DNA from: Cenococcum geophilum
Taxonomy: Eukaryota
NCBI GenBank assembly: GCA_050273025.1
Contig: CP158635.1
Coordinates: 10,168,001 to 10,232,000, forward strand
Direction: 5' to 3'
DNA: 64,000 bases
Every line of letters begins with the position of its first letter. The first letter of the stretch is position 1. The position numbers and the translations under genes were made by a program. The notes under the pieces are model-generated. The model had not been told where the DNA came from. It did not search any database and saw only the letters and a list, made by a program, of their open reading frames with translations. This document shows positions 35,815 through 63,519 of this stretch, piece by piece.

Positions 35815-38800
35815 TTATACCCGCGTCAACGCAGCCAGCTGCGTGATACCCATATTCAAATCCTCCATACGCACCCACTCCTCGACAATCTCCCGATACA
35901 TTTTAACAATCTCCTTCATCATCTTCTCATCCATGCACCCGTCCCAGTATCCCAACTGCAGCTCTAGGCTCTTCTCACCAAGCAAAACACCCAGGACGAC
36001 GTCGAACTCAGGAGCACGTGTACCGTACAACGTGTCAAAGCCCAGCCGGGACGCGCCGGTGCTAGCTGAAGTATTGCTCGGGTAGTACCCGTTTCCACTC
36101 TCCTCGGAAGCATATTCAATTGACAGCACGGAGTTCCAAGGAAGGATGCCATCTTTCTGCTCTTTTGCACTTGCGGCGGCGACGAGGCCGTGCTGGTATG
36201 GCAGCGTCTCGAGGAAGCTCGCCTGAGTGTTCTTGAGGAGGTCGTAAGTGGTCATGGAGTTCTCGGTGCCGTTGTCAAGAGGAACATTCATACGACATGC
36301 GAGCATGTTAATCATGGGACCGACGATTTCATCGACGCCAGCGATGTCGAGCTCACGATTAGCTGTTAGGTAGCCGAAAAGTACATCGTCAGACCCGGTG
36401 AAGGCGCGCAGGACGAGGATCCAAGCGGCTTGGAACAGCGTCGCGGGCGTGAGCTGGTGCTTGCGGCAGAGTTGGGTGATGTCTGCGGCTGACACTGCTA
36501 CTTCGATTGGCACGAGGCGATTTTCCCCCTTTGAATCTCCCTTGCTGCCGGATTGAGGAATGTGGCAGGATTTGCTGTCGGAGAGATAAGTATTCCAGAA
36601 CTCGCTCGATGGTGTCATATCCTGACTTGCAAGCCACGACACATACTCACGGAAGCCTGGTGCAGGGCCTTCTGGGAGCAGGCCCTGGTATGCAAGAACG
36701 AGGTCTTGGTAGATGGTGCGAGTGGACATGCCGTCCTGCAGAGCGTGACTGATTTCGAGCTTGCAGTACAGCGCTGAAGGAGTTTGGAAAATAGTGAAGC
36801 CCACGTGTGGTTTGAATGATGAATGCGATACAGTGGTGTGCTGTTCGATAATTTCGTTGACGCTGGATTCCTCACATTTGATCACATCCACTGTAGGAAT
36901 GTACGACTTGAGAACAATTTGGTCGAATTCAGCCGGCCGGACAATGCTGGGGATGAAAACAGTTCGCAGGGCTTCATGTCGAGTAGTCACCATTCTCCAA
37001 GCATCCCGGATCTGCGCAATATCAACAGCTCCATTGTCACTGGGAGATGTGATCTTGTGCGCTGTATCTGATTGGTAGGTTCCTGGTGTCAACCTCTGGC
37101 TGACCAACATGTGTTGTTGAAGGGGCGTGCAAGGAACAATGGCTTCGACGTTGGAGAAGGGGACACGAATCTCGTGGAGTGACCTTTCGAGAATAGCAAG
37201 CTGAGAATACTCCATGGGGAGGAGAGGGAAATCGCTTAGGGTTGGCTTTCGCGCCATTGTGGCTAAGGTCCTGGTAAGATCGGGGATTGACTGCTCAGTG
37301 ATTTCGACAAGACGTGATAGTGAATCTTGGTGTGCGAGTTGACCGCTGTGTGTAAATTTGATCGTGAGCTCGCCATTTGCAACTATGGCAGAGACATTTA
37401 ATACTGCAGGAGGTTCTCCCAACTGTGGTCGTTGAATAATCTCTTCGTTTGCTCTGGAGATACTGTAGTCGGAGTATTCCAAGAGCATTTCCACGCAGCC
37501 GGGGAGTGGCTGTGTCAATGATAGGCTCGCATCATTCTGAGCGCGGGCATCCTTGAATTCGCTAAGAACTTGGATGAAGTCTTCACTGTTTGACTTCGGC
37601 AATTGACGGATACGGTTAAACTGACCGACTGTCCTAGAACTTCTCCGATCTTCTTTGATGGAAAGTGACGAGCAAGATCGGACTCCAAAGACTGTGTTCC
37701 ACGCTCTAGCGAGAACAGCAAGGATGACGTCCATAGGTTGCGTTGATAGCGCATGGTTACTGGCACCCAATAGCAAATCGGTAGTCTTGGAGGGCAAAGT
37801 GAATGACTTTTCGACCATACTCGCCATAATCTGTGCTGGGTCGGTGATTCCCCATGAGGTAAGGTCGATAGGAGTATTGGTGGCTTCGTTATCGGCGCTT
37901 GTTCCATCCGCAAGTAGCCATGCTTGAAATGGCAATGCCTTGTTGGAGGAAATGATGTCGTTGTGCAATAGGTCTTGAAGATCTTGCACGATTATATTCA
38001 TTGAGGTAATATCAGCAATCAATGGGTGGATAGTGACTGTCATGACTTGTTGGTCCGGTTGTTCGGTCAGGTTGAATAGGTGGATTGCGAATAAAGGTCC
38101 CTTCTCGATGTCCAGTTCGGCTTCCAATTTCGACAAGAATGCTTTGATGTCGCTATCCGTCGATAGTGCATGGGCTTCAAACTTATACGATGCTGTAAGC
38201 TCCTTGGTGATTACTTGGTTCCATTGACCTTTAGAGTCGCGCGTAAAACGGGCCCGGAGCATAGAGTGCTGCTGGATAAGAGCTTCGATCGCCCTGACTA
38301 GTTTCGGCACTGTGGTAGACGACGCTAGACGTAGTAGTAGAGTCTGGTTGTGCGTCTGAGTAGAATCGGTAGTAAAGGACTCAATGCATGCTTGCTGCCA
38401 TGCTGTTAACGGGAAAGACTTGTCGACAATTTCTTCAAAGGCTGCGCCTTCCTCAGAAAGGAATGTTGCCTCAATGGCCAGGTGCGATATACTCTCGCAT
38501 GTTAAGATGTCGCGGACTGTGAGCGAAATGCCCGCAGCTTGACACTTGGCCCTCAACTGCATGGCTGCGATCGAATCTCCACCGAGGTCGAGGAAAGAAC
38601 GGTTCATGTTGATGCCGGGCAAGCCAAGTACATCGATTAAGAGTTCTTGTAGACGTTTCTGCTGGACGGTTGCTGGGGCAGCCCAACTACTTTCCTCTGT
38701 ATCACCGGCGGCGATCGATTCGTAAATATGCTCTTCCATCTCTTCAACCCATTTGAGGGTAGTGACCCTGTCCATTTTGCCGTTTGGTGTTAACGGAAGC

Positions 38801-41800
38801 GCTCGGACGACCACCCACAACGCAGGCACCATATACTCAGGTACTATTGTTGCCAGATTATTGCGGACCAATGCAATCTGTACATCTGCAACACCTTTGT
38901 CTAGACCGGAAACTAATGCGAGCTGTGATTCTGGGCTCAGAGGCAAAGCGGAAGATTCCAGAGAGAGCACTGTAATCAGTCTCTTTTGAAGATATCCAGA
39001 CTTCGGGAGCAGAGCAACAGCATGCTTCACTCGTGTGTCGGCGACAAGGTGGTGTTCGATCTCGCTGAGCTCGATTCGTTGACCATGGTGTTTGACTTGA
39101 AAGTCTTTCCTGCTGATGTAACAAATCTCCCCTTCCGCACTATATCTGACAAGGTCACCGGTCTTGTACATTCGTCGGGCTGCGCCGGCCTCTCGTGCCC
39201 ATGCTGGGTTTGTGATGAAGGCTGCATCTGTCTTTCCTTTGTCGTTCAAGTATCCACGAGAAACCATCCTTCCTTCAATGACTAGTTCACCAACGCAGCC
39301 AATTGGTGCGAGCTTGTTGTGGTCGTCTGGGTCTACGATCCACATTAGACATCCAGACGGCCGACCGAGATTGGCTGGATCACTCTCGAGGGTTAGAGGA
39401 ACAGCATCCACGCAGTGAATGCTGCATTCTGTCATTCCGTAGCTGATTATGAGACGAACAACCGGAGCCCATGTCTGCACATTGTCTTGGGTGAGCAACT
39501 CTCCACCCAGAATGAGCGTTTTGAGGGTTGGGACGGTTTTTGGGTCCAGCATGCCAGCGACAGTTGGAGTCAAGAATCCATAATTGACGTTCATCCTATT
39601 GATTGCGCCGGCCAAGTCGTTGATACGCTCGTCCTCCGATGGTATGCAAATACATCCACCTCGCTGGAGGGTCGTAAAGATATCCGCGACAGAAACATCG
39701 AAAGTATACGCAGCGAACTGTAAAAGTCTGGTGTGCGGCCCAATCTTGCGGTTCGTTCCGTGAGCTCTTGAGCTGGTACAAAGTGAGCCATGCTCAACCA
39801 CGACACCCTTAGGTTTTCCCGTGCTGCCTGACGTAAAAAGCACAAATGCCGGATTTGTCGGAGAAACTTGAGGGAGTGGCGTAGCTAAGGAGAGGCGTGC
39901 AAGAAGATCTGGCTCGATCACTACAGCTTCCGCGACTCCATTGAACTGATGAGCATGGACTTTGTCTGTGAGAATGATGGTTGCCCCAGTTTCCTGTATG
40001 ATCTGTGTCATTCGTGCAATAGGCGCCGTTCTGCCAAGATGGACGCAAGCTCCTCCTGCCTTGAGCACACTCATCATGGCGACGATTGTCCACATGGACT
40101 TATCAAAGCACATTGGTACAAGGTATTCCGGTTTGACTCCTTTCTCGGCAAGGTAGACAGCTAGCTTGTCTGAGAGCCGATCGAGCTGACGATAGGTAAG
40201 ACATCCGTCCCAAGAAGAGACAGCTTCTGCATCTGGCTGGATTTTGGCCTGTTCTTGGAATATGTGGTGTACGCAGTTCTCAACATCCTGAATGTCGACC
40301 ATATTGTTCCATTCGACCACCTGCTGAAGCTCCTTCGGGTTGACAAGACCGATGTCTTTCAGAATAGTGGACGATGATACGCTGTTCAGTTGATGAACTA
40401 CATGTTCAAACTGATCCATCACTCTTCGAGCTGATGCTTCCGGTAGAGCCTTGTGATCGAAATGCAGCTCGATGTCGATCTTGCTTTCGCTCATGACCAC
40501 GCATTCTACGACGACCGCATAAGTATGGAAGCCACGGAGAAGCGACTTATCAAGAACCTCGTCGAGAAGCTCGCATTTCTGCAGATCCCCCAATGGCTGT
40601 TGAATGACAAAGAGATTCTTGAGGTTTAGCTTGTCTCCTGCCATTGCGTAGATGTTTTGGATGCCTGCATGCTCGAAAGGAATCATATCGGTGGCTTGTT
40701 GTTGAACTCTTGACAGGAAATCTGCTACGGTGGAGGTTGAGTTCACCTGAAGTTGAATAGGAACGGTGGTGATTGTAGGCCCGATTATACTCTCAATGCC
40801 TTGAATAGGTGCATTGCGTCCAGAAAGTGTGGCCGCAAATGCGACGTCTTCGGAACTCATATATCGGCCCGTTACAATAGCCCATGCCGCTCGAAGGATT
40901 GTTGAAAGCATGAAGCCTTGATTTGCATCGCGTGCGATCTCAATGGTTTTGGTAACCTCGCAGTCGGGGGATGGCTGATAGGTGGCCGAAGGAAGAGCAG
41001 GAAAGCTGTTTGGCGTACCTTGACCCAGCTGTTTGGTCCAGAAGGCTCTGCATTCTTCCGCATCTATTTCCTTTAATAACTTGATGAATTGGTTGTAGCC
41101 TGGTGCGACGCCAACTTGAGAGCCATTGTAAAGAGCTTCCAACTGTTCCATGAGGAGATTGGCACTATGTCCGTCGTAGAGAGCGTGATGAACCGTCCAG
41201 ATAAAGTAGTTATTCTCTGAGTCTAGGGCATACCGAGCAAGGGGGCTGCCGTATTTAATTGACACTAATTTGTCGCTGGCAAGGTATTCAGACAGTGGGG
41301 CTTCATGCTGCCATGAAACACTTTCCTTGAGCACCACTTGCATTGCACCCGATGCCTTGGGTAGAATGATACGAGTTCTCAAGATAGGGTGAAGTGCGAC
41401 GAGCCGTGCCCATGCATCCTTGAAGCGTTGAATATTGATGTCTTCCTGAATACGGAACACTCGTTGGGCCGTATAAGCGCTTTCGTGTTGCGTAGCAAGT
41501 TCCATGAGTCCTTCCTGAAGAGGCGTGCAAGGGTAGATGTCCTCGATCATGTCCTTCTCGACAGCGCATTGCGTTGCGGCGTCTTCAATAAGTGTGTCGA
41601 CGTTCCCGTCGCCATCGGCGGACGCTAGCTTGAATGGAGGAAGAAGAGCATTGATTGAGACAGTGCCATCTTCTAGGATGGCGGCAGCCGCCATGTCGCA
41701 CAAGGCGGGGTTTTTGAAGATATCCGCCACAATCAACTTGAAGCCTTGTGATCTTGCCATTGAAGTCAGCCGCATTGCTTTGATGGAGTCTCCACCCTTG

Positions 41801-44800
41801 TTGAAGAAGCTGTCATCAGCACCGATGGAAGCAGGATCAACGTTGAGAATTTGTGCCCAAAGCGACTGCAGGGCTATCTCCACGGGCGTTGATGGAGCGC
41901 GTTTCGAAGCGGCATCTTCTCCATTTCCAAGAGAATAAACTTCAATTTGTTCTAGGGTCAAGGCTGCGCCAATGCGTCGAAGTGTATTTCGGTCGATCTT
42001 TCCAGTTTGAGTCTCGGGCATTCGCGGGAGCGGAATATACAGAGAGGGCACCATGTATGCCTGCAAAGATCTTCCAATGAAATCTCTGAGCTGCAAGAAC
42101 TTTGAATTGAGATTCACCGATAAGGCCAATACTTCACCTCTATCGTTGTTGATATCGTCCGGCGAAGGAACAACGAAGGCAGCAAGAGCTGCTTTCTCGA
42201 CGTCGCCTCCGAGAAGAATCTTCTCGACAGCCTGTTTTTGAGCGCCGAAAGAGCTGGTTTTGACATGATGCTCGATTTCCCCTAGCTCCACTCGAAGGCC
42301 ACGAATCTTTATTTGGGTATCCTTCCGACCTAAGCAGAGCATGTCGCCATCGTTGGTGTAACGGACCAAGTCCCCGGTTTTGTAGAGTTTAGTTGGCCGA
42401 GGGCGAATTGAGGAGGCCCAGCTAGGACTATCGATGTAAGATTCCGCTGTCTTCTCTGGATTTTTCAGGTATCCCCTTGCGAGGAGTGGTCCTTCGACAA
42501 GCAGTTCACCAATGCAACCAATTGGAACTAGTCGGTCAGAATCATTTTTATCAGCAACCCAAGTCCGACAGCCTTGACCCTTTCCAATCATAGATGGCGG
42601 AGTGTCAAGTGTAGATCGAGTCATCACAGCCAGAATAGAACATTCAGCTGGGCCATAATCATTGAACAAGTTGACTCGACTGGCCCATCGGGCATGAATG
42701 TCAGCGCGAAGTGGCTCACCGCCAAGAATGATCGATTTGAGCCCCGGTACATCGTCAGGATGGAAAGTGTCTGCGACTGTTGAGACCATGATAATCCAGT
42801 CAACGTTCAGGGTATTGATAGCGCTAACTAGGTTGTTCATTCTATCGTATTCGGATGGAACGCACACACATGCACCTGACACTAGCGGTGCAAAACTCTC
42901 AAAGAGACAGATATCAAATGTGTGAGTAGCAAATTGGAGAACGCGTGAGTCTGAGTTCAACAGGATATGAGGTAGCTGGTAGTGAGCCATCGTGCAGAAT
43001 CCACGGTGCTCGATGATGACGCCCTTCGGTTTTCCAGTGCTGCCAGAAGTGAAAACGATGAATGCGGCGTTCTCGGGACTGTATTGCGGAGCATCGAAAG
43101 AGCTATAATCCTGTGGCAAAGAGTTGAGGAACGACGGTTCGATGGATAGGACATTAGGCACTATGCCATCAAAGAGATTAGCATGCTGGGGAGAGACGAG
43201 AACCACCGATGCTTCGATATCCTCGAGTATACTGAGCATTCTCGGCATGGGGTACGTTGGCAGGAGCTGTACACAGACACCACCGGTTCTCATAACGGCG
43301 AACATGGAAATAATATTCCACATAGACTTATCGAAGCACAAGCCAACTTTGGCTTCCGGGCCAACACCAAGAGAGACCAGATGGTTTGCAAGTTTCGAGG
43401 ATAGGGCATCAAGCTCCTGATAGGTGACATTGCCGTCCCAAGCGGATATGGCCTCGGCTTGCGGCCGAGTGGCGACGTTTCTGAGCACAAGGTCGGGAAT
43501 TCTAGCATTAATGCTGTCAGGAAGCACCGCATTCCAGGTGGTGATATCCTTGAGATCGTATCTGTTTAGGAAACTCAGTTCTTCTATCGGTCTGTCAAAG
43601 TCCCCGGAAAGCATTTGGACGAAATGCTCATATTGGTGAAGCATCCGTGTCATCTGATCCGTGGAAATGACATCTTCGTCATACATGGCTTCGACGTTGA
43701 ATCCTCCGTCGTTTCGCAGGTTGCATATGACAACCAACGGGTAAGTGTCAAAATTTTCTTCTAGTATTGGGAGAGGATCCATGCCCAGGAAAGACTCATC
43801 ATCGTTACCGGATGGTTGCAAGACGAAGAGATTGGTAATGCTATCAACGGCAGTTCGAGCCTCTAGGCTAACGTCTCGAATATTTTGCAGCCCGAAGTGT
43901 TCATACTCGATCGAACTAATTGATTGAGTCTGTACGGCCTCCAGAAACTGCCTAATTGTGATTCCTGATCTTGACAGCGATACTCTCACTGGAACGGTGG
44001 TGATGGTTGGGCCCATCATTGTGTCAATCCCGGGGAGCGAAAGGTTACGTCCTGAAAGAGTAGATGCGAAAATTACATTCTCGGAATCGGCATATGTTGC
44101 GAGCGTCATTACCCAGGCGGCTCTCTTGATCGTAGAAGGCATAATGTTGGAAGGAGTATCCGTAGCGGATCCTTGGTGAGTGATTGTCCTCTTTGATGCT
44201 GCTGCATAGCCGAGACCAACGACGGGAAAACTGGTAGGGAAGCTTCCTTGTGACTCAAATTGGGTCTTCCAAAAGTCAATGCATGCTGACTGGGGAACCT
44301 CACCAAGGCGACCGATAAAGGTCTTGAAGGGTGTGGAGCTTGTAATCATTTCATCGCGATAAGCTTGAGCGACTTTCTCAAAGAGCAAAGAAACGGACCA
44401 TCCATCATAAATCGCATGGTGAGCCGTCCAAACAAAATATACTTCCGGTTTTGATTCTCCAACAATCGCCAAGCGCATCAAAGCCTCCCCGTACTGAAAA
44501 GTAGACGCTTTATCTGCGGTCAGGTAAGCCTCCAAGTCAGATGCTTCTTGCCATGAGAACGGGCGCTTATGGACGACTTGAAGAGTTCCCGAGCTTGGTG
44601 TATGAACGATGCGGGTCCGCAGTATCGCCTCTTTCTCGATGACTTTTGCCCATGCTGATCGGAAATGGGAGAGGTCGAAATCGCGAGGAAATTGGAAAAC
44701 CTTTTGTGCGACGTACGCTCCCGTCTTCCTCATACCAAGAGCCATAAGACCTTCTTGAAGTGCCGAGGTGGGGTACATGTCTTCAATGTCTTCGGGCGAC

Positions 44801-47800
44801 ACGTTACATTGTGCCGCTGCCTCCGCGACCACCTTGCCCAGTGGGGAAGTATCGAGCTGAATCAGACTGAAAGGCTCGATTCCTCGGGCGGCTCTTTGAT
44901 CTCCAGACTTTTTGGCTACGGCAGCCATTTCATGCAGATTCGGATGCTTGAAGATATCGGAAACGCGGATGATGACGTTCTGCTTTCGAGCTGCAGCAAC
45001 CATTTTCATAGCTCCGACCGAGTCTCCGCCAAGACCAAAGAAATTGTCGTCTCTGCTAATTGTCTCGGCTTCAATGCTCAGGGTTTGACCGAACAGGTCT
45101 TGGAAAAGCTTTTCCATCTTAGTAGTCGGCTGGGAATTTGAGGCGCTTCGAAGCATGTAGTGCGAAACTTGGGCTTTTGAGAAACCAGATGCAATCTGCC
45201 TTAGCTTTGTGCGGTCCATCTTGCCTGACTGGGTGAAAGGAATATTGAAAATTGGCACAAAGATGGAAGGTATCATGTAGAATGGTAATATTTTAGCCAG
45301 CGAACCTTGCAAGTCTTTCAACAGCCGCCTCAAGCTATCGGTTATGTCAATGGTCTTTTGGTCTCCGCCCTTCCTTAATTGGGAGAACTCCGGTGAGCAG
45401 ATGTAAGCAATGATCGTTTTGCTCTTCGTGTGCTCCTCAATGGAAATGGCATCGATCACAGCTTGGTAACCTTCTGGCAAGAGTAACTGAACCTGATACA
45501 TGATCTCATCGAGTTCAACTCTCTGTCCGTTAATCTTGACTTGGGTGTCTCGGCGGCCAACGATTGTAATGCTACCATCGGTATTAAGAATGCCCAGGTC
45601 TCCACTCTTATAGAAGCGGCGAGGCGAAACGGAGCTGGGAAACAACGAGACCCAATCTGGATCTTCAACGAATGCAGCAGCGGTTTTGACTGGATCCTTG
45701 AGGTAACCTCGGGCTAGCAGTGGCCCTTCAATAAGAATCTCACCAGTGCAGCCAATTGGCACAAGGCGATTGGGATCATGCTCGTTGACAATCCAGACGT
45801 GAGTTCCATAAGCCGGACCAATATTTGTTGCTGCAGATGTTCTTGAGAGTCGTGTACTCGCAGTCTGATTGACTGTTGTTTCGGCAGGACCGTAAAGATT
45901 ATAGAGCTCGACATGATCCGCCCATGTTTCAACAACGTCACGATTGAGCGGTTCGCCACCGTTGTTGAGTCGTTTTAATGTCGGCACATCGGAGGGCCGT
46001 AGAAGTCCACTTACAGTAGCCGTGAGATCAGCCCAGTTTGCCCTTCGAGAGTTGATACCACCTGCGAGGTCGTTCATTCGCTCTTCGTCGGAAATCACGC
46101 AAATGGCGCCGCCCGTTTGCAGAGTCGTAAGAATGTCTTGAAGCGACACGTCAAATGTGTAGGCTGCGAACTGTAGTGCGCGCGTCTCCGGACCAAATCC
46201 AAGGACGGGTCCCATTGAAGTACAACAGGTTCGCAAATTGAAATGCTCGAGAATTATGCCTTTTGGTTTGCCCGTGGTTCCCGACGTGAATACTACAAAC
46301 GCTGCATTCGAAGGCTTGACCATTGGGCATGGATGGCTCAAGCCAAGTTCCAGCTTGCTGATAAATTCCAGGTCAACACCGAGCACGTGCTCGACATTCG
46401 GGGTTTTTTCGAAAATGCGAACATTTCTAGGTGCAGCCAAGATGATGCGTGAACCTGTTTGCTTGATGAGGCCTTCGAGCCGACTGACTGGATGCCCTGG
46501 ATCAAGAGCGACCGCGGCTCCTCCGGCTTTCAAGATTGCAAGCATCGAGATTATGGCCCATGCAGATTTCTGGAAACAGTATGGGACGATAACTTCAGGT
46601 CCCACACCAAGCGTGACAAGGTAGTGCGCAAGCCGCGTAGCTTGATTGTCAACTTGTTTGTAAGTCCAACTTCCTTCGTATGAGCATATGGCCTCTGCGT
46701 CAGGTGTCGCAAGAACTTGGGCTTCAATTGCGCTATGGATACACTCTTCGGTGGTTTCGGGGTATACAGCCGTGATTTTTCGTAGTTGGTCCAGGTGTTC
46801 AGCGCTGACGAGGTCAACTTTTCCGACTGATATCTCTGACCCCCTGACGGTCGATTCGACGGCTTTCGCAAGCGTTGCCCCAATGTTCTTCGCTTGAGCT
46901 CGTGTGAATTGCGATGTCCAAAACTGCAAAGCTACATTGATCCTGCTCTCGGTAACACCGACATCGAGAGAAAGTGCGTACTCTGTCGGATCGTAGCCTC
47001 GGATGGCTTCGACCATGATGCTCGAGTCCGTAAGCATTTCACGATCCGTTTCCCTGTGGAATGAGATAATGGTATTGAAAAGTGGCTGACTGCCCAGTTT
47101 CAAAGCGTGGTGAATCTCTGCCAGGCCACAGTGCTGGTTTGGCAGAGCGCGTGTCAGATCGTCCGCGACCTTTTCGAGGGCATCTGATAGGGACACCGAG
47201 TCATCCAGTACCATGCGACTGACAAGCATTGTAATGAACGCCCCCACACCCTCTTCAATACCACTTAATGGCGCGTCTCGACCAGATGAGAGATATCCGA
47301 AGCATACATCCTCTGAGCCTGAGTACTTTCGGAGGACGAGGCCCCATGCTAACTGGAAAATGTTTACCAAAGTAACATTCCTGTCAGTGCAGAAGTCAGT
47401 CAGGTCTGACGGGGTCATGCCGACGTCAATGGTGACGGTTTCGAGCCTGCTTTGCGGATCACTTGCGTCTTCCCAAGGGGCCATAATGGGAAAGAAGCAA
47501 GGATTGACATCTACCAGGTAGTCTTTCCAGAAATCAATGGCTAAGCTCAAAGGACGGCTGAGGACATGCTTGATATATTCTTCGAAGGCGAAGCCATTTC
47601 GGTCACTGATCCGCCCATCGTATGCCTGGATGAAATCTCCAAGAATGTTTGCTATGGAAGAGCCATCGATAATAGCATGGTTGATTTCCAGCTTACAAAT
47701 GGCGACATTTGCAGAAACATGACAGATCGTGAATCGATGCAGGGATTCACCGGTTGCGAAGGCGAGTTGGTCTTGCGAATCGAAAACTTGGTCCACTTCA

Positions 47801-50800
47801 TCCTGCTGGCATCCTTGAATGTGAATCTTTGGATTGATTGTTTTCAGCACGACCTGGTCATAAAGGCCTGCTTGGCTGACACTTTCCACGAAGACGGTTC
47901 GTAGAGACGTGTGACGCTGGACGACCTTCCCCCAAGCCATTTTCAGAGTTTCCACATCTAGAATGTCAGAAGGATTTCTTGTTTCGACCTTGAGGGTGTG
48001 GTTGTATTCATAGCACCCTTGCGATTCTGATCGGACTTGGCTGATCAATAAGCCATTTTGCATCGGAGAGCAGGAATATATACTCTCAACTTGCTCGAAG
48101 TTTGAAATGCCAATTTCTGGCAATTTTGAGTATATGAGGTTGTTGAGATCACCGTAGGACAGTCGCAGCAGCGGGAAGTCCGCTAGTGTTAACTCCTGTC
48201 GGCGGTTTTGCAACTGTTGAAGGCTGTCGACGAGGCACAACTCGCAGTTCTTGATCCATGATTGCAGCAAGTCCTGGTTCTTCATGATCTTGTTGAACAC
48301 AAATAGCAGTTGCATTTGGCCTTGTATGACCTCGGCCGTGATTTCCACCAGGGCAAAACGAGGCGCCTCCTTACCAACATCTTCGAAAATCGCCTGGTAT
48401 CCAGGGACTTGTGTTAGAAGTGCGTCTGAACGTTCCATTTGCTGATAGAGGCCCAAATAATCGAAAGACAGCTCGACATGATCGTGGTCGTGAAATTTTG
48501 CCATTCCGGCTTCGTTAAGATATCGGGAAGCAAAATACGGTCGGCCGTTTCCAGGAACACTGCGTCGAACGTCTTTGGCACGCTTGACAAAGTCCAAGAT
48601 TCCGAAGCCCTCTTCAACGCCGACATAGAGAGGATACATTGTCGTGAACCATCCCACTGTACTGGAAATATCGATGTCTTCATCCCACGGTTCACGGCCG
48701 TGGCCTTCTCGAAACAGGGCCGGCACTGGGCGGTCGCTGAATACTTGACTGAAAGAGTAGATAAGAGATGCCAGAAGCAAATCAATCGGCTCCGTATTGA
48801 AAGTTGAATGGCAAGTTCCCTCAAGAAGCTCCTTGGTAGTTGCCGGATCCAGAGTGAAAGTCAGTTCCTGTGTGTCACACATGCGATTTGGTTTGCTTGA
48901 CATTCCCCAGTAGTCGAAATCAGGTTTGGGGATGTCAAATGGCAGAGCATAGGACATATCCGTCGCCTGACTCTCGTGCTCCGATTGCAATGCTAGCCAG
49001 TTTTGGAATGGCAGAGGTTTCTCCGAGGTCAACAGGCCTATGGTTAGTATCTCTTCCAGATCTCGGAGAATCACACGCCATGATACAAGGTCGATCATGA
49101 GGTGGTGGGCAACGAGGAAGAGATACTGACCCTCCGACGACGTGTTGAACAGAGCAACCGCAAAAACGGGTCCTTTCTGTGTATCTAATGACGTTTGCAT
49201 AGCAGCCATGAGCGGAAAAGCGTCTTTTGCTGTTTCGATTGCATGTACCGCAAAGTTGAACGAATCATCGACTTGGGAGGGAACAAGTTGCATCCACTTC
49301 CCACTTTCATCTTGTAAGAAGCGGACACGAAGCATAGAATGCTGGACAACTAAGAGTTCAACTGCCTTAGCGAGACTTGTTTCGGATATTGGCCGTTCCA
49401 CTTTCAGGTAGAAGCTTTGATTGAATCGTGTCTGCCGGGCATCATCGATTTCAGCTGGTGCAATATCGAAATACATTCTTTGCACGGGTGATAGATCGAA
49501 TGGGACATCGAATTTCTCCTCGGTCGAATAAGCCGTCTCGCTCGCGGACTTGACGCAGTACGATAATTCGGTGATGGATTTGCTTCTGAGTATGTCCTTG
49601 ACGCTGACAGCGAGTCCTGCGCTTCTGCATCTGGACATAACTTGCATCGCAGTGATAGAGTCACCTCCAAGACTAAGGAATGACTTCTGAAGGCTGATGT
49701 TCTCCACAGGAAGGTTGAGAACGGTGGAATAAATTGATCGGAGATGCTCCTCGATGCTTGACGATTCCTCGGCAGCCGGTGCGTCTTCAAGGTCGACGCC
49801 GACAATTTCGCGATACAAGCTATTGTCCGCTTCCAAGATCCAGTTGCTGACAAGGGAGCGATTGAGCTTTCCAGAGATTAACAGTGGAAACCTCTCCAGA
49901 ACGACCCATGTCTCGGGAACCATATATTCAGGAACATTTGACTTCAAATTCTCCCGAATAGATTGAAGATGTCGCTGTACATCCTCTTGATGCATGTCCT
50001 GGAGAACATGCACTGTAGATTCCACAGACTCTGAGCTTTCTGATAGGAAATCCACAAGCGACACCAATGCGACAAGACGATTCTGAAACAACCCAGTCTT
50101 GGGAAGGATGACCATTCGATGGCGGACTTGCGGGTGTACTCCAATGTGATGCTCGATCTCTCCTAATTCGATGCGCAATCCTCGCAGTTTCACCTGGGTA
50201 TCTTTTCGGCCAATAAAGTATATCGATCCATCGGGCAGAAATTTGGCAAGATCGCCTGTCTTATAAAGTCTTCTCTTTTGTCCAGATTTTGTCGTTGGAC
50301 CCCATGCCGGACATTCAATGAAGACCTCGTCGGTTTTCTCCTTGTTTTTTAGATATCCGCGGGCAAGTATTGGCCCTTCGATCAGAAGTTCGCCAACTGT
50401 ATTCGGCGGAAGTAATACGTCATGATCATCTGCATCAACAACCCAGCAGATACCTCCGACTGGATATCCAATATTTGCAGGATCAGTATCAGGCGTCATT
50501 TCGGTGTTTCCAGATGCTGCAATTGAGCACTCGCTGGGTCCGTATCCGTTCACAAGCTGTACGTGGCCGGCCCAGGTTTCCACGTCTACTTTCGAAAGAG
50601 GCTCCCCTCCTAAGGCAAGGGTCTCAAGAGTTGGGACCATGCTTGGAACCATAAGCTTCACCAGCGAAGGCGTCATGAACGTCCAGGTAATTCGATATTC
50701 ATTTACTATGTGGGCTGGGCCATTTGCCATCATGGCCATGGCAGGAGTACAAATGCAGGCGCCATGGATCAGGGACGTGAGAATCTCGAGGATACTGACG

Positions 50801-51459
50801 TCAAATGTGTACGATGCGAGCTGCAAGACTCGGCTCGATGGAAGGATGCGCGCTCTTTCGGCGTGCCGTATCGAGCCACTGCAGAAGGCTTGGTGTTCAA
50901 TTAAACAGCCTTTAGGTGTTCCGGTGCTGCCAGAAGTGAAAATAATATACAAAAGATTAGATGGTTTGACCGCAGTTTCGGGTACTGCGTCATGATGCGG
51001 AAGACTCTCCAGGGTATCTCTGCTCAGTGCGAAAGTAGAGGGAAAGTTCGTTTCAAAAAGATGCGCTTGCTGAGGGGAGCAAATAATCACTTTTGCTTCC
51101 ACTTGTGTCGTGATAAACTGCCTCCGGCTTTCCGGGTGTGACGGATCCAAGAAAACTATGGCAGCTCCAGCTTTCAGTACTCCTAGAATACCAACAATTG
51201 CCCATGCCGACTTCTCGAAGCAGAGAGGCACAACGCCTTCAGGCCGAATGCCTAATTCGACCAAGTAATGGGCTAAGCGATTGGATGCCTCGTCCAGTTC
51301 AGCATAAGTAAACGTTGCATCGTGTGCATCGACGGCAACGGCGCCTGGGCGCTGCTTCACTTGCTTGTGAATAAGTTCGTGTGCGCATTTCTCAACACGC
51401 GCTGGAAGTTCATTATTCCACAGCCAAACGGCCGCAGTCGAATCTGTCACGCCGCCCAT
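35815..51459 (-). CDS. Tetramodular non-ribosomal peptide synthetase, A-T-E-C-A-T-C-A-T-C-A-T-E(degenerate)-CT, 5214 aa, intronless
   Basis: Four FTSG(S/T)TG.PKG and four YK(T/S)GDL A-domain cores; four GGDS carrier motifs; E domain HHLMIDLVSW, EGHGRE, TVGWFT; C domains NHAIIDG, HHAIYDG, HHALYDG; terminal SHALQDGMS. Confidence 0.97.
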   Translation of the reverse strand: MGGVTDSTAAVWLWNNELPARVEKCAHELIHKQVKQRPGAVAVDAHDATFTYAELDEASNRLAHYLVELGIRPEGVVPLCFEKSAWAIVGILGVLKAGAAIVFLDPSHPESRRQFITTQVEAKVIICSPQQAHLFETNFPSTFALSRDTLESLPHHDAVPETAVKPSNLLYIIFTSGSTGTPKGCLIEHQAFCSGSIRHAERARILPSSRVLQLASYTFDVSILEILTSLIHGACICTPAMAMMANGPAHIVNEYRITWTFMTPSLVKLMVPSMVPTLETLALGGEPLSKVDVETWAGHVQLVNGYGPSECSIAASGNTEMTPDTDPANIGYPVGGICWVVDADDHDVLLPPNTVGELLIEGPILARGYLKNKEKTDEVFIECPAWGPTTKSGQKRRLYKTGDLAKFLPDGSIYFIGRKDTQVKLRGLRIELGEIEHHIGVHPQVRHRMVILPKTGLFQNRLVALVSLVDFLSESSESVESTVHVLQDMHQEDVQRHLQSIRENLKSNVPEYMVPETWVVLERFPLLISGKLNRSLVSNWILEADNSLYREIVGVDLEDAPAAEESSSIEEHLRSIYSTVLNLPVENISLQKSFLSLGGDSITAMQVMSRCRSAGLAVSVKDILRSKSITELSYCVKSASETAYSTEEKFDVPFDLSPVQRMYFDIAPAEIDDARQTRFNQSFYLKVERPISETSLAKAVELLVVQHSMLRVRFLQDESGKWMQLVPSQVDDSFNFAVHAIETAKDAFPLMAAMQTSLDTQKGPVFAVALFNTSSEGQYLFLVAHHLMIDLVSWRVILRDLEEILTIGLLTSEKPLPFQNWLALQSEHESQATDMSYALPFDIPKPDFDYWGMSSKPNRMCDTQELTFTLDPATTKELLEGTCHSTFNTEPIDLLLASLIYSFSQVFSDRPVPALFREGHGREPWDEDIDISSTVGWFTTMYPLYVGVEEGFGILDFVKRAKDVRRSVPGNGRPYFASRYLNEAGMAKFHDHDHVELSFDYLGLYQQMERSDALLTQVPGYQAIFEDVGKEAPRFALVEITAEVIQGQMQLLFVFNKIMKNQDLLQSWIKNCELCLVDSLQQLQNRRQELTLADFPLLRLSYGDLNNLIYSKLPEIGISNFEQVESIYSCSPMQNGLLISQVRSESQGCYEYNHTLKVETRNPSDILDVETLKMAWGKVVQRHTSLRTVFVESVSQAGLYDQVVLKTINPKIHIQGCQQDEVDQVFDSQDQLAFATGESLHRFTICHVSANVAICKLEINHAIIDGSSIANILGDFIQAYDGRISDRNGFAFEEYIKHVLSRPLSLAIDFWKDYLVDVNPCFFPIMAPWEDASDPQSRLETVTIDVGMTPSDLTDFCTDRNVTLVNIFQLAWGLVLRKYSGSEDVCFGYLSSGRDAPLSGIEEGVGAFITMLVSRMVLDDSVSLSDALEKVADDLTRALPNQHCGLAEIHHALKLGSQPLFNTIISFHRETDREMLTDSSIMVEAIRGYDPTEYALSLDVGVTESRINVALQFWTSQFTRAQAKNIGATLAKAVESTVRGSEISVGKVDLVSAEHLDQLRKITAVYPETTEECIHSAIEAQVLATPDAEAICSYEGSWTYKQVDNQATRLAHYLVTLGVGPEVIVPYCFQKSAWAIISMLAILKAGGAAVALDPGHPVSRLEGLIKQTGSRIILAAPRNVRIFEKTPNVEHVLGVDLEFISKLELGLSHPCPMVKPSNAAFVVFTSGTTGKPKGIILEHFNLRTCCTSMGPVLGFGPETRALQFAAYTFDVSLQDILTTLQTGGAICVISDEERMNDLAGGINSRRANWADLTATVSGLLRPSDVPTLKRLNNGGEPLNRDVVETWADHVELYNLYGPAETTVNQTASTRLSRTSAATNIGPAYGTHVWIVNEHDPNRLVPIGCTGEILIEGPLLARGYLKDPVKTAAAFVEDPDWVSLFPSSVSPRRFYKSGDLGILNTDGSITIVGRRDTQVKINGQRVELDEIMYQVQLLLPEGYQAVIDAISIEEHTKSKTIIAYICSPEFSQLRKGGDQKTIDITDSLRRLLKDLQGSLAKILPFYMIPSIFVPIFNIPFTQSGKMDRTKLRQIASGFSKAQVSHYMLRSASNSQPTTKMEKLFQDLFGQTLSIEAETISRDDNFFGLGGDSVGAMKMVAAARKQNVIIRVSDIFKHPNLHEMAAVAKKSGDQRAARGIEPFSLIQLDTSPLGKVVAEAAAQCNVSPEDIEDMYPTSALQEGLMALGMRKTGAYVAQKVFQFPRDFDLSHFRSAWAKVIEKEAILRTRIVHTPSSGTLQVVHKRPFSWQEASDLEAYLTADKASTFQYGEALMRLAIVGESKPEVYFVWTAHHAIYDGWSVSLLFEKVAQAYRDEMITSSTPFKTFIGRLGEVPQSACIDFWKTQFESQGSFPTSFPVVGLGYAAASKRTITHQGSATDTPSNIMPSTIKRAAWVMTLATYADSENVIFASTLSGRNLSLPGIDTMMGPTITTVPVRVSLSRSGITIRQFLEAVQTQSISSIEYEHFGLQNIRDVSLEARTAVDSITNLFVLQPSGNDDESFLGMDPLPILEENFDTYPLVVICNLRNDGGFNVEAMYDEDVISTDQMTRMLHQYEHFVQMLSGDFDRPIEELSFLNRYDLKDITTWNAVLPDSINARIPDLVLRNVATRPQAEAISAWDGNVTYQELDALSSKLANHLVSLGVGPEAKVGLCFDKSMWNIISMFAVMRTGGVCVQLLPTYPMPRMLSILEDIEASVVLVSPQHANLFDGIVPNVLSIEPSFLNSLPQDYSSFDAPQYSPENAAFIVFTSGSTGKPKGVIIEHRGFCTMAHYQLPHILLNSDSRVLQFATHTFDICLFESFAPLVSGACVCVPSEYDRMNNLVSAINTLNVDWIIMVSTVADTFHPDDVPGLKSIILGGEPLRADIHARWASRVNLFNDYGPAECSILAVMTRSTLDTPPSMIGKGQGCRTWVADKNDSDRLVPIGCIGELLVEGPLLARGYLKNPEKTAESYIDSPSWASSIRPRPTKLYKTGDLVRYTNDGDMLCLGRKDTQIKIRGLRVELGEIEHHVKTSSFGAQKQAVEKILLGGDVEKAALAAFVVPSPDDINNDRGEVLALSVNLNSKFLQLRDFIGRSLQAYMVPSLYIPLPRMPETQTGKIDRNTLRRIGAALTLEQIEVYSLGNGEDAASKRAPSTPVEIALQSLWAQILNVDPASIGADDSFFNKGGDSIKAMRLTSMARSQGFKLIVADIFKNPALCDMAAAAILEDGTVSINALLPPFKLASADGDGNVDTLIEDAATQCAVEKDMIEDIYPCTPLQEGLMELATQHESAYTAQRVFRIQEDINIQRFKDAWARLVALHPILRTRIILPKASGAMQVVLKESVSWQHEAPLSEYLASDKLVSIKYGSPLARYALDSENNYFIWTVHHALYDGHSANLLMEQLEALYNGSQVGVAPGYNQFIKLLKEIDAEECRAFWTKQLGQGTPNSFPALPSATYQPSPDCEVTKTIEIARDANQGFMLSTILRAAWAIVTGRYMSSEDVAFAATLSGRNAPIQGIESIIGPTITTVPIQLQVNSTSTVADFLSRVQQQATDMIPFEHAGIQNIYAMAGDKLNLKNLFVIQQPLGDLQKCELLDEVLDKSLLRGFHTYAVVVECVVMSESKIDIELHFDHKALPEASARRVMDQFEHVVHQLNSVSSSTILKDIGLVNPKELQQVVEWNNMVDIQDVENCVHHIFQEQAKIQPDAEAVSSWDGCLTYRQLDRLSDKLAVYLAEKGVKPEYLVPMCFDKSMWTIVAMMSVLKAGGACVHLGRTAPIARMTQIIQETGATIILTDKVHAHQFNGVAEAVVIEPDLLARLSLATPLPQVSPTNPAFVLFTSGSTGKPKGVVVEHGSLCTSSRAHGTNRKIGPHTRLLQFAAYTFDVSVADIFTTLQRGGCICIPSEDERINDLAGAINRMNVNYGFLTPTVAGMLDPKTVPTLKTLILGGELLTQDNVQTWAPVVRLIISYGMTECSIHCVDAVPLTLESDPANLGRPSGCLMWIVDPDDHNKLAPIGCVGELVIEGRMVSRGYLNDKGKTDAAFITNPAWAREAGAARRMYKTGDLVRYSAEGEICYISRKDFQVKHHGQRIELSEIEHHLVADTRVKHAVALLPKSGYLQKRLITVLSLESSALPLSPESQLALVSGLDKGVADVQIALVRNNLATIVPEYMVPALWVVVRALPLTPNGKMDRVTTLKWVEEMEEHIYESIAAGDTEESSWAAPATVQQKRLQELLIDVLGLPGINMNRSFLDLGGDSIAAMQLRAKCQAAGISLTVRDILTCESISHLAIEATFLSEEGAAFEEIVDKSFPLTAWQQACIESFTTDSTQTHNQTLLLRLASSTTVPKLVRAIEALIQQHSMLRARFTRDSKGQWNQVITKELTASYKFEAHALSTDSDIKAFLSKLEAELDIEKGPLFAIHLFNLTEQPDQQVMTVTIHPLIADITSMNIIVQDLQDLLHNDIISSNKALPFQAWLLADGTSADNEATNTPIDLTSWGITDPAQIMASMVEKSFTLPSKTTDLLLGASNHALSTQPMDVILAVLARAWNTVFGVRSCSSLSIKEDRRSSRTVGQFNRIRQLPKSNSEDFIQVLSEFKDARAQNDASLSLTQPLPGCVEMLLEYSDYSISRANEEIIQRPQLGEPPAVLNVSAIVANGELTIKFTHSGQLAHQDSLSRLVEITEQSIPDLTRTLATMARKPTLSDFPLLPMEYSQLAILERSLHEIRVPFSNVEAIVPCTPLQQHMLVSQRLTPGTYQSDTAHKITSPSDNGAVDIAQIRDAWRMVTTRHEALRTVFIPSIVRPAEFDQIVLKSYIPTVDVIKCEESSVNEIIEQHTTVSHSSFKPHVGFTIFQTPSALYCKLEISHALQDGMSTRTIYQDLVLAYQGLLPEGPAPGFREYVSWLASQDMTPSSEFWNTYLSDSKSCHIPQSGSKGDSKGENRLVPIEVAVSAADITQLCRKHQLTPATLFQAAWILVLRAFTGSDDVLFGYLTANRELDIAGVDEIVGPMINMLACRMNVPLDNGTENSMTTYDLLKNTQASFLETLPYQHGLVAAASAKEQKDGILPWNSVLSIEYASEESGNGYYPSNTSASTGASRLGFDTLYGTRAPEFDVVLGVLLGEKSLELQLGYWDGCMDEKMMKEIVKMYREIVEEWVRMEDLNMGITQLAALTRV

Positions 51460-53216
51460 TATTGGAGACTTAGGGTAGAGGTTTGTGGAATCGGGGCGTT
51501 GGTAGTAGTAGAGCTGGCTTTGTGAGTAAAGAGTTCATTATTCTAAAAGGTGTTTCCAAAAGATGTTGGACCTACATGTGGGGTATCTTCGACGTCACTT
51601 CTAGTACTGATAGATTAGAGATGTGTTAAATATTAGGCGTACTTTCGTAGCGGGAGATCTATGATCTATGATAATTGTTCTATTATTATTGAAGGAATTG
51701 AGGCAGGATTGAGAGACAATAAGATAAGCTTAAAGCTTGTGGAAAGAATGCCGAGCCGTTATGGGATCGCAAATTGTGACGATGAGGAATAGTAGAATTC
51801 AAAAAAGAATTCCTCCAACATTAAGCTATACCTGTTCCTAGCATCCGTGAGCCGAAGAAGCCGGAAATAGAACACCGGGCCATCGGCACGGTGTGTAGAG
51901 AGGCGGTGGTAAGCATTAGGTCAAGCAAGGTTATCAACGATACATCAAAAGGAGGACCATTAAGCTCTAAGACGCACGGGTTGAGGCTGAATCGCATATT
52001 CCCCAGGCACGGAGTGAGACAGTCTGGGGGGCTGAAGGTTGTGCATGTAAGCACTACCATCGTGATACTTGTGAGCAGATCGCTCCGATGCAGCGTCTAA
52101 GCGCGTGGAAGGATAGGGCGCAGGCGAGACTAAGAACGAGTTTAATAATTAGACAATGCAAGCCCTTGCTGACGATCCCCGATAAAGTGAGGTGTGGTGG
52201 TGGCGATGCGAACGTGTGCCCGCCCAAGAGGTCAAGTTGGCGGAGATTTTTAGAGCAGGGCTTATCTGTGCGCACAGGTCGGTTTTCTTATCTGGCGGTA
52301 AAGCATGAGGTAGGTCCAGCCTTGGCGCTGACCGTGAGTAAAATTACCTATTACCGCTATGGTTATATTTGACTCCACAGGGCTAAAATAACACGCTATT
52401 TATAGTCGGTCCCTTTTTCGGTCTGGGCCACCCGACAATGCTGGGCAACGGACGTGCTTGAGCCGCCCACAACGCGTCTGCATGTCAACTCAACTCCACC
52501 TTTCTTGTCGACCTTCAAAGACCAATCTTGGCTACAAGGGGGTTAGAAGGACCGGGCAGACCCCTGCTAGTACGCTAGCAAAATAAGACAACCCATCTAT
52601 TTTGCTAAGGGCTCGCTTATTTTAAAATCGCATCTAGGCACTAGCAGGGAGCGCATTCGCACAGCGCTGCTGTGCAAGAGCGGAGAGGCGGACGAATGGT
52701 CACGTCTATTGGTAAGCAGTAATTCTGAAACTCGAATTCTACCTCCAATGAATGGCATGGACGATAAGGTTTTTGAAACTCGACGTCCGCCCCTCATGAA
52801 TGTCATACAAATTCAAGTGTGACATGGCACAACAGCCTAAAACCCCTACTGCGCCGCATTGCGCTGCTCAGCCCAGTTAAGTGCACCATCCATAACAACG
52901 CCAAAGATAGGGTCCCACCATCGACCGTTGCAGATGTCAGACCTGCGCCTCTTGCATCTCTAAATTGCCTTTCTCTTACGTAAGGTCTTTTCTTTCTGAC
53001 CCACGACCACCAATTCCCTTTCTGCGAAATTAGATAACTACTTTGGTCTGCTCATCGAAAGCAGGAAGTTATTTGGCCACTTCTCTTTCAGTCAAAACAC
53101 AAACTCCTAGTCTCGTTGTATCAATTGCTTGCTTCGACCTTTAGACCTTCGACGAGTAACAGCTTTTCTACCTTCTCTCGGCCTCGAGTCGCTCATTTGA
53201 GCAACATACTATCATC
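51460..53216. promoter_or_regulatory. Divergent intergenic region shared by the NRPS and RTA1-like genes
   Basis: Head-to-head ATGs 1.76 kb apart. CGG/CCG triplets and two CTTATCT (GATA) sites cluster around 52240-52420. Confidence 0.5.
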
Positions 53217-54396
53217 ATGACTGTCGATAAAAATGGCATCGATCCAAACCACCTTAACCTCACAACCACCAATACGACCCTCATTGCCATGCAGCGGAAG
53301 TACTGCGAATTAGGCGAGTGTCCAATCTCATGGGCGACAATTTCGTATATTCCGAATCTTGGTGGCAATGTTGTCTACATGATCTGCTTTCTGGTGCTTC
53401 TGGGCATCCAAATATTCTTTGGTGTCCGTCACAAGACATGGGCGTTTATGGTTTGCATGATCTTTGGCATACTCCTCGAGATTATTGGATACGTTGGCCG
53501 CATCCTATTACACAACAATCCTTTCATTATGAACAATTTCTTGATGTAAGTTCAAGTTTATCCAGCATTCCTTTGGAATTTTGTGGTAGCTAATCTGGTC
53601 AATCTCCAGATACTTGATCTGCCTTACAATTGGCCCTGCATTCTTAACCGCATGCATCTATCTATGCCTCAGCCGAGTCATAACCGTCATTGGCTCCGAG
53701 TACTCCCGTCTTAGGCCAAAGACCTATACCAAGGTCTTCGTCGGCTCCGATCTACTTGCGTTGATCTTGCAAGCAGTGGGAGGTGCATTGGCCTCAACTG
53801 CCAAAGACAGTGCCGGCTCAACCACGGGAAAGAACGTCATGGTCGCTGGTTTGGTCTCGCAAGTGATTTCCATGCTCTTGTTCATGATTCTCTGGGCGGA
53901 CTTCGCCTTGCGAGTACGTAAAGCACGATCATCAGGGACGCTTGCGCGCACACAGCCTCCGCTCTACCATTCTCTCCGCGAGTCGAGAATGTTTACTGCC
54001 TTTCAGTGGAGTGAGTCAATCCTATCTCCAGTGTCCTGGAAATGCTGGTTTCTGTCAGACTAGCAAGCATGGAAACTGATACTAATGATTACTACCGTAG
54101 GTCTTGCAATTTCGACACTCCTGATCTTTGTGCGATCAGTATATCGTGTGGCAGAGCTCTCGGAAGGCTTCAGTGGAGCCATCGCCAACCAAGAGGCCCC
54201 TTTCATGATCTTTGAAGGCCCAATGATCATCATCGCCGTGGCTCTAATTACCTGGTTCCACCCCGGACGCGTCTTTAATGAACTGTGGGTCCCAGCTGGG
54301 CTGGGTATACGATCACACAAGGCCGACCAAACGATAGATTTGTTAGAGGGTGAAGGGTTGAAGCACAACGCGAGAGTATACGGCCAACAAGTGTAA
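53217..54396 (+). CDS. RTA1/RSB1-family lipid-translocating exporter (multi-TM); introns 53546-53609 and 54011-54100
   Basis: Y.PNLGGN, GILLEIIGYVGR, CLTIGPAFLTACIYLCLSR, FVGSDLLALILQAVGG, LIFVRSVYRVAELSEGFSG..NQEAPFMIFEG, WFHPG are the RTA1-family motifs. Confidence 0.93.
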
Positions 54397-62255: not shown

Positions 62256-63519
62256 TTAACTACTACTACTAAAATATAGAAAGAGGCTGCTAAACGACAT
62301 AACCGTGTAGAAGTTAAAGGCAAGCATATATACCCGCTAATTAAATGTCATTACTGCCTTTAATAGCACTATAAGAACAAAAAGTATAGTATTATACACT
62401 GTCTTAAATTTAAATTAAAGTACTACCTATTATATGCTTACTACTAGGCATACTAGTCGGAAGTAATTAAATAGAAAAAAGCCATGCTTAACTTCCTAGA
62501 TCTACCGCTACTATTAAAGATTAGGTATAGTAAACGTATATAGAATAGGGAGGATAAAAAAGATATAAAGTTAGATAGCTATAAGCACCGTTAAGGTAAC
62601 TTTAGCAGCATAAACAAATTAATAAGCTCCCCCTTAAGACGACAGCGGTAATAAGGAGAGGCTTATACTATAGTTATATAATTACTAGCCAATCCTATTC
62701 CGTAGCAAGATTAATTAGTAGTAGTAACGGTTTTAATAAACCAGATATAGCAGCAGAACTAGTAGATGCTATAATAGGTATAGAATGCTATATAGGCGGC
62801 GATACCTCCTTCCATATAACTAACTATCGCCAATAGTTATTTTATAGTGGACCCTACACCAAATACAAGATTTTTATTAGTGCTGTTATTATAGAGCGCT
62901 CTATTGGTTCCAGCTTTATCCTCTAAAACGCCTACCTATTACTATCTACCCCTAACTATGCCTACAAACCTACTACCTAATAGCCCCACCTACAGCGATA
63001 TTAAACAATTAAATAGTAAGCTTAGCGCCTTTACTAAATAGCTATAAAGCCATTACCTAGTTATCGCTAACGCCTTTACTAAAGCGGAGTCAATTTTAAT
63101 TAAGGACTATAACTTTAAGTTACTTAAGCATGCGCTACTTAATAGTAGTATAGGCCATATAAAGCTGTATAGGATTGGTTTAATATATAGGCTTATTAAT
63201 CGTATAGTAAACTGCTTAGAAGACTTTAGAACGGATTAGTAATATTCTAATACTATAGCAGAGGCCTTACTTAACGTCTTAATTGGCAAGCACCCTATAT
63301 AGATATATTACAAAAGACCAGACCTTATCCTTTTTATACTACCTCTTAATTCCTACCCGTAAGAAATGGCCTTTTACCCTCTTATTAAATCCTTATTACT
63401 CTACCGCGTGGCTTAAAAAGTCACTAAAGTTATTTTATAGATTAGCTTTAAATTAATAAGCACGCAGCCACTGCTTTAAGTTATAGAAAGAAGCTTTAAT
63501 TGGATTAAAATTAGGTAAG

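Follow-up and report, generated by a model that had tools for sequence, protein, structure and literature searches.

Does a divergent gene pair in the Cenococcum geophilum genome, a nonribosomal peptide synthetase (NRPS) facing an RTA1-like membrane protein on an island between repeats, make up a complete biosynthetic pathway, or does it belong to something larger? The pair lies in a window of 64,000 nucleotides (assembly GCA_050273025.1, contig CP158635.1, positions 10,168,001 to 10,232,000), and a first-pass annotation had read it as a minimal two-gene island, free of repeat-induced point mutation (RIP), with no tailoring enzymes, fatty-acid synthase (FAS) or pump. Both genes proved real, intact and transcribed. 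It is quite likely that they form the left end of a cluster of seven genes (in order NRPS, RTA1, ATP-binding cassette (ABC) transporter, cytochrome P450, FAS alpha, FAS beta, aminotransferase) that yields a lipo-tetrapeptide. Transposons have spread this cluster over ~80 kb in Cenococcum.

The gene pair, its probable cluster partners and their linkage

The NRPS is a single open frame of 5,214 amino acids in which motifs and Pfam profiles place four adenylation (A), four thiolation (T) and six condensation-family domains, in the order A1-T1-E1-C1-A2-T2-C2-A3-T3-C3-A4-T4-E°-C, where E is an epimerisation domain, C a condensation domain and E° a degenerate second E; the four modules first called thus stand. 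Contigs from RNA libraries cover it with no differing letters, as a single piece in two of three runs. The facing gene belongs to the RTA1/RSB1 family, its three exons taking up positions 1-28, 32-143 and 148-207 of the 208 in profile PF04479, and the named RTA1 of C. geophilum matches those exons at 93-99%. Both genes were covered in all four RNA runs compared with 35500-55480, with both RTA1 introns and the intron of the NRPS 5' untranslated region (UTR) spliced; because these runs were picked for containing this DNA or for sharing the species label, their read depth cannot rank expression. The divergent arrangement that had been proposed was borne out by stranded reads on opposite strands, in the single run of raw reads, whose strain differs slightly. 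Three promoter words from a k-mer search of five upstream regions, made without a chance control, were not used.

Inside 34327-55454 the two-gene description holds, with this interval mainly RIP-negative, RIPped repeats on both sides, and four further open reading frames (ORFs) above 100 amino acids showing no Pfam family match when scanned. It does not hold as "minimal", nor does the claimed absence of tailoring enzymes, FAS and pump, since the ABC, P450, FAS alpha, FAS beta and aminotransferase genes lie 36-61 kb past RTA1, outside the window (loci L004-L006 and L090). Between RTA1 and the ABC gene, the 36.6 kb of 54397-91000 is only RIPped repeat (GC 0.36, RIP index +1.24), and the RIP index is negative at all five gene loci. 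A dedicated FAS pair stands beside the NRPS, 46-59 kb past RTA1 behind the repeat block, together with the aminotransferase and P450 that an aspercryptin-type pathway calls for. Three FAS alpha loci occur in the genome; the cluster FAS alpha is probably not the housekeeping enzyme, because it is without the ACPS domain that the C2 locus has. The third locus (G000:C7:11086022-11090350) has no FAS beta match in the surrounding 30 kb. No other backbone gene was seen next to the FAS block. No major facilitator superfamily (MFS) pump, ToxE-type regulator or racemase was found among ORFs of at least 150 amino acids from -20 kb to +140 kb or in Pfam scans, where genes of short exons could escape. A FAD-binding-4 oxidoreductase with a signal-peptide-like start (L008 3271-4841, minus strand), 17 kb beyond the aminotransferase and on the far side of another RIPped block, could be one more gene separated from the cluster.

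Conservation of the pair and its linkage were judged from the best 120 of 1,046 NRPS matches. Among these are 17 full-length orthologues at 66-97% identity and two partial ones, and the next best, also the best non-orthologous full-length identity listed, stands at ~42%. Fourteen of the 17 come from named Dothideomycete species of the Gloniales, Mytilinidiales and Pleosporales (66-85%), Parastagonospora nodorum included, the closest named match being Glonium (85%). The specificity codes hardly vary: A1 reads DVLFAGG(I/V)AK in 17/17, and A2, A3 (allowing I/V) and A4 are each kept in 16. An RTA1 orthologue is listed in six of the 14 named species and lies next to the NRPS in all six, 1, 1, 1, 1, 2 and 2 accessions away, and of the 73 RTA1 loci from metagenomes, most of them short or paralogous, four show the NRPS, always head-to-head; the pairing expected in other genomes is thus found there. 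The aminotransferase orthologue, which belongs to a 30-member clade (support 0.98) without the C. geophilum paralogue, is linked to the NRPS in eight of the 14, at +6 (Zopfia), +6 (Lophiotrema), -10, -10, +12, +13 and +19 accessions and at 9 by locus tag. The +6 offset equals the gene count of the Cenococcum cluster, and in both those species RTA1 is one accession from the NRPS.

Could the pair nonetheless be self-sufficient, with an NRPS that uses ordinary amino acids, RTA1 as sole exporter, and the FAS-P450-aminotransferase-ABC block a separate neighbour? The NRPS-RTA1 linkage is the tightest of all, the aminotransferase goes unlisted in six of the 14 species, and a published C. geophilum table enters a 5,216-aa NRPS, 'nps10', as the sole gene of its cluster, with 5.35-fold less expression in mycorrhiza than in free mycelium (5.4 vs 28.9 reads per kilobase per million, RPKM; PMC5023957). 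That gene was matched to the Cenococcum NRPS by length alone, and the published rule permitted just 3 kb between the genes of a cluster (PMC5023957). The aminotransferase linkage in eight species, with exact spacing twice, the FAS block without another backbone gene alongside, and the aminotransferase 2-9 loci from A1-type NRPSs of Sclerophora, Penicilliopsis and Claussenomyces make self-sufficiency improbable. Five longer NRPSs begin with an A1-type code (P0092, P0073, P0022, P0035 and P0067, from Sclerophora, Penicilliopsis, Claussenomyces, Polytolypa and Aspergillus alliaceus), which suggests a wider orphan lipopeptide family; in the first four genera an aminotransferase is on apparently the same contig as the NRPS. 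A symbiosis-induced 'Pes1-like' NRPS of the published study (PMC5023957) has 3,986 aa and is therefore not the NRPS of the window.

Module specificities and the predicted product

The A domains were placed in a FastTree phylogeny of 122 domains, four from the Cenococcum NRPS and 118 from 21 chosen proteins, out of 660 extracted and without HTS1. A clade of 15 (support 1.0) unites A1 with module 6 of four NRPSs that have six modules and end in a reductase, and the codes of these modules are identical to that of A1 at 7-8 of nine positions; A2, A3 and A4 cluster with modules 1, 5 and 2 of AtnA-like NRPSs (support 0.93, 0.95 and 0.92). The best outside code matches of A2, A3 and A4 reach 5, 5 and 8 of nine, none to a module with a confirmed substrate. 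Aspercryptins hold 2-aminocaprylic acid together with either 2-aminododecanoic or 2-aminodecanoic acid, residues whose synthesis is believed to involve two aminotransferases of the cluster (PMC8262921), and two FAS genes of that cluster serve 2-amino fatty acid synthesis (PMC12918583). Because A1 groups with the aspercryptin-type module 6, it probably loads a long-chain 2-amino acid, which E1 would then invert.

E1 carries intact HHxxxD and EGHGRE motifs after module 1, as first described. The degenerate second E, missed in that domain list, shares 32% identity with E1, and neither of its catalytic motifs survives in any of the 15 aligned sequences. In the Glonium NRPS (P0038) the Glu of the second E1 motif is Val, unlike in 14 other sequences; Glonium may therefore make an all-L form, or its record holds an error.

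The terminal C domain, with its SHALQD, had been correctly recognised, and its SHxxxDxxS motif had been taken as the mark of a cyclising terminal condensation (CT) domain. That motif proved not to be diagnostic: 46 of the 50 best non-orthologous matches come after an E-sized gap, 35 of those 46 are internal, and many internal domains that match share the motif. The terminal C looks like post-E domains, both internal and terminal ones, and its motif therefore leaves cyclisation unproven. A seven-gene cluster with a linear or side-chain-closed product, its terminal C being a post-E domain left over, would agree with this distribution, with the weak match to the CT of TqaA (E 2e-13, weaker than to bacterial C domains) and with the likeness of A4-T-E°-C to a truncated internal module. 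Such a product is nevertheless rather unlikely, given that all 15 aligned sequences keep the terminal position and the catalytic His-Asp, that 11 of the 50 best matches are themselves terminal, and that cyclisation is common among fungal terminal C domains (PMC4205913). The terminal position and conserved His-Asp make release by the terminal C, probably with ring closure, the simplest reading, and a cyclised product is likely.

From aspercryptin-type pathways, the dedicated FAS would build a medium or long acyl chain, the P450 would oxidise its C2 and the aminotransferase would yield an L-2-amino fatty acid. A1 would load this acid and E1 turn it D, modules 2-4 would append three residues with no more epimerisation because E° is dead, and the terminal C would release the chain, most likely head-to-tail onto the free amine of the lipid residue, to form a cyclic lipo-tetrapeptide that contains one D-residue. 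Export of this product would fall to the ABC transporter, with RTA1 shielding the producer's membrane from the amphiphile. Self-protection by RTA1 is more likely than a role as sole exporter, because the cluster has an ABC pump and by analogy with the RTA1-like AcrD of the acrophialocinol cluster, which gives self-resistance and raises tolerance from 5 to 100 ug/mL (PMC11791885). HimE and the C. geophilum RTA1 (P0257) share 47% identity. The earlier proposal of an uncharacterised tetrapeptide, probably with one D-residue, agrees with an intact E1, a degenerate E° and no product in the literature searched; that it is a lipo-tetrapeptide is probable because the FAS, aminotransferase, P450 and ABC genes do exist past the transposon block.

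A fuller account is offered tentatively: an old, vertically inherited Dothideomycete cluster, shared with near-invariant codes by fungi ranging from ectomycorrhizal symbiont to wheat pathogen, would make a single membrane-active cyclic tetrapeptide, so far undescribed, that carries a D-2-amino fatty acid, on an NRPS of reordered aspercryptin-type modules (6-1-5-2), with RTA1 for self-resistance, and would still be working in Cenococcum though split by transposons. Several points weigh against the seven-gene, aspercryptin-like interpretation. Direct sister support of A1 and module 6 is 0.77, the comparison NRPSs were called AtnA-like by architecture and taxon rather than by name, and it is our assumption that the aspercryptin-type module 6 takes the longer 2-amino acid. 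Eight of the 14 named species have no RTA1 orthologue among the matches listed, which is weak evidence from a word-based search. For Glonium, Mytilinidion, Lophium, Lindgomyces, Amniculicola and Polyplosphaeria, the 120 matches listed include no aminotransferase orthologue; the gene may be lost there, cut off by a contig break or simply missed. The four Zopfia and Lophiotrema genes between RTA1 and the aminotransferase were taken as ABC, P450 and FAS from their count alone. Metagenome locus L045 has a close RTA1 and no cluster gene within 10 kb, and L021 and L022 show no ABC, P450, FAS or aminotransferase in the 2.7-3.4 kb past RTA1. Neither a dehydrogenase nor a regulator was seen in the cluster, and no compound is reported for it in the literature searched, subscription papers and some supplements being beyond reach. 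Comparison by length with rows of the published C. geophilum table gave no evidence of co-regulation of the cluster genes: its RTA1 rows (339, 335, 294 and 311 aa), aminotransferase rows (417 and 451 aa) and FAS beta row (2,086 aa) do not match 341, ~385 and 2,057 aa, and no co-regulation is claimed (PMC5023957).

Flanking transposons, neighbouring features and coordinates

RIP-mutated blocks lie at ~23-34 kb and from 55.5 kb on in the window, and on each side the island is flanked by a complete copy of one terminal-inverted-repeat (TIR) element, inverted to the other (~3.15 kb, 114-bp TIRs, TA sites), whose TA-CAGT ends presumably fit Tc1/mariner. Two inverted copies of one element could suggest a composite transposon that carried NRPS and RTA1 as cargo. 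The family is dispersed, however, with 40 scored matches of 113 candidates, and the flanking copies are no closer to each other (90-94%) than to six copies from elsewhere (90-95%). A metagenome locus, L018, with NRPS and RTA1 present and 99.7% identity over 12.2 kb, joins 55454 to 82178 over a single TA, without the 26.7-kb right-hand insertion, and a second (L017) likewise has no right TIR copy. The right edge of the island is therefore a polymorphic insertion rather than the end of the cluster. A tree of 15 NRPSs (midpoint-rooted, no outgroup), in which Cenococcum and Glonium pair and the Mytilinidiales follow, broadly tracks fungal orders; horizontal transfer left no sign in this tree, which carried no formal test. 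The empty right-hand site and the dispersed family led to rejection of the composite transposon, which is almost certainly wrong.

Other repeats and neighbours were also noted. A ~145-bp repeat resembling a miniature inverted-repeat transposable element (MITE) is found upstream of both the ABC gene and the FAS beta gene (L004 6711-6855, L005 6653-6793), and the same repeat is downstream of RTA1 in another lineage (L017 12187-12334). Within the island, a 720-bp piece (34509-35228) has one 85% copy at G000:C4:23028967, and its short ORFs resemble a decayed gene fragment. Immediately left of the left transposon is a P450 (21250-22690, plus strand) whose C-terminal motifs look like those of the ERG5 sterol C-22 desaturase. 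The left neighbourhood appears housekeeping, with an EF-G/EFL1-type GTPase at 7803-10558; short imperfect tandem repeats occur within a small RIP-positive patch at 11172-12024 next to an AAA-ATPase-like gene. Elsewhere in the genome, very large NRPS frames of 15,655 and 6,723 aa (G000:C7:422497-502025 and C7:562441-573716) were noted with an NRPS paralogue of three repeats that shares 42-47% identity with module 1 of the window NRPS.

Table 1. Features of the NRPS-RTA1 island, its boundaries and the cluster genes beyond; coordinates past 64000 extend the window count, and coordinate + 10,168,000 gives the position on G000:C1.
Feature	Position	Strand	Basis
NRPS coding sequence, 5,214 aa, intronless	35815..51459	-	motifs, Pfam
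A1, code DVLFAGGIAK; predicted substrate a long-chain 2-amino fatty acid	49780..51447	-	A-domain tree and code; substrate inferred
E1, epimerisation motifs intact	48175..49497	-	motifs
A2, code DVQDNGLVNK, polar pocket	45160..46797	-	code, tree
A3, code DIFIIGDILK	41935..43542	-	code, tree
A4, code DVAFIGSIHK; clusters with E-followed module 2 of aspercryptin-type NRPSs	38710..40332	-	code, tree
E° (degenerate second E), between T4 and terminal C	37255..38427	-	alignment
Terminal C, post-E type; presumed release/cyclisation	35818..37227	-	alignment, match survey
NRPS 5' UTR	51460..52236	-	RNA
NRPS 5' UTR intron, 62 nt	51514-51575	-	spliced in RNA
Shared divergent promoter region, approximate	52237..52767	.	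depth trough, stranded reads
RTA1-like membrane protein, 341 aa	53217..54396	+	Pfam PF04479, RNA
RTA1 exons	53217-53545, 53610-54010, 54101-54396	+	Pfam and RNA splicing
RTA1 introns	53546-53609, 54011-54100	+	spliced in RNA
Left boundary: complete TIR transposon, nested long-terminal-repeat (LTR) element ~25901-33930	23141..34326	+	114-bp TIRs, TA target, ~3.15 kb
Right boundary: inverted copy of left TIR transposon, nested insertions	55455-82177 (window part 55455..64000)	-	TIRs, TA
ABC transporter, ABCC-type	~91003-96150	-	Pfam; not modelled whole
P450	97482 to ~99400	-	Pfam; not modelled whole
FAS alpha	~100543-105750	+	main part 1,646+ codons, no internal stops
FAS beta	107109-113391	+	2,057-aa model, no internal stops
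Aminotransferase, class IV, branched-chain, ~385 aa	114230-115613	+	Pfam

Comparison with known systems

With its boundary corrected, the cluster reads as a widespread orphan pathway for an alpha-amino-lipid peptide, and the NRPS and RTA1 expressed alone would probably yield no product. One mass could reveal the product in any of the 14 named species, and deletion tests are feasible in tractable species that carry the cluster. Distance-based cluster callers miss clusters of this kind in repeat-swollen genomes. The P. nodorum NRPS (5,176 aa) shows 67% identity over its full length and has matching codes, carries an accession 13 away from SNOG_09093, and is very probably SNOG_09081, which has been tabulated with a C-C end and no product (PMC4205913). 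There, more genes separate the NRPS from the aminotransferase, and no RTA1 orthologue is among the matches listed. The Cenococcum RTA1 is a new candidate for the short list of RTA1 self-resistance genes; AcrD, to which it is likened by description, is likewise an RTA1-family gene in an amphiphile cluster (PMC11791885), that product being a polyketide whereas a peptide is predicted here. Pleosporacin (six modules; PMC12177691) and BII-Rafflesfungin (eight modules; PMC6518819) are not this product.

The four-module layout with E in module 1 had been likened to the HC-toxin and apicidin synthetases HTS1 and APS1, in which E has the same place, and a histone deacetylase (HDAC) inhibitor of that type, with an 8-oxo-decanoyl residue, has some points in its favour: the HTS1/TOX and APS clusters share a four-module NRPS with FAS and aminotransferase genes (PMC3554632). 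The layout A-T-E-C-(A-T-C)3 is otherwise similar but lacks the degenerate E after T4, and all four Cenococcum A domains cluster with aspercryptin-type modules in the tree, which is without HTS1. In HTS1 the 2-amino-9,10-epoxy-8-oxodecanoic acid (Aeo) residue is L and belongs to module 4, module 1 taking Pro. On that order the position of the lipid-type module differs, being the first in Cenococcum and followed by E. An ABC transporter and RTA1 stand where those clusters have an MFS pump, the stretch read showed neither such a pump nor a ToxE-type regulator or racemase, and no protein named HTS1 or APS1 is among the 120 matches listed. An HC-toxin-type product is thus very unlikely.

The closest likeness is to the aspercryptin (atn) cluster of Aspergillus nidulans, which we take to contain P450, ABC transporter and RTA1-like genes as well. 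Both systems combine an NRPS with two FAS genes and branched-chain aminotransferases for 2-amino fatty acids (PMC12918583, PMC8262921), the aspercryptin clusters with two aminotransferases (PMC8262921) and Cenococcum with one. AtnA has six modules and a terminal reductase, whereas the Cenococcum NRPS has four and an E°-C end, and the lipid-type module, last in aspercryptin synthesis, is here first and epimerised. In AtnA-like proteins modules 6, 1, 5 and 2 match the groups of A1, A2, A3 and A4 respectively. In summary, the pathway probably works like the aspercryptin type, with an NRPS that is not AtnA and probably not an HC-toxin synthetase.

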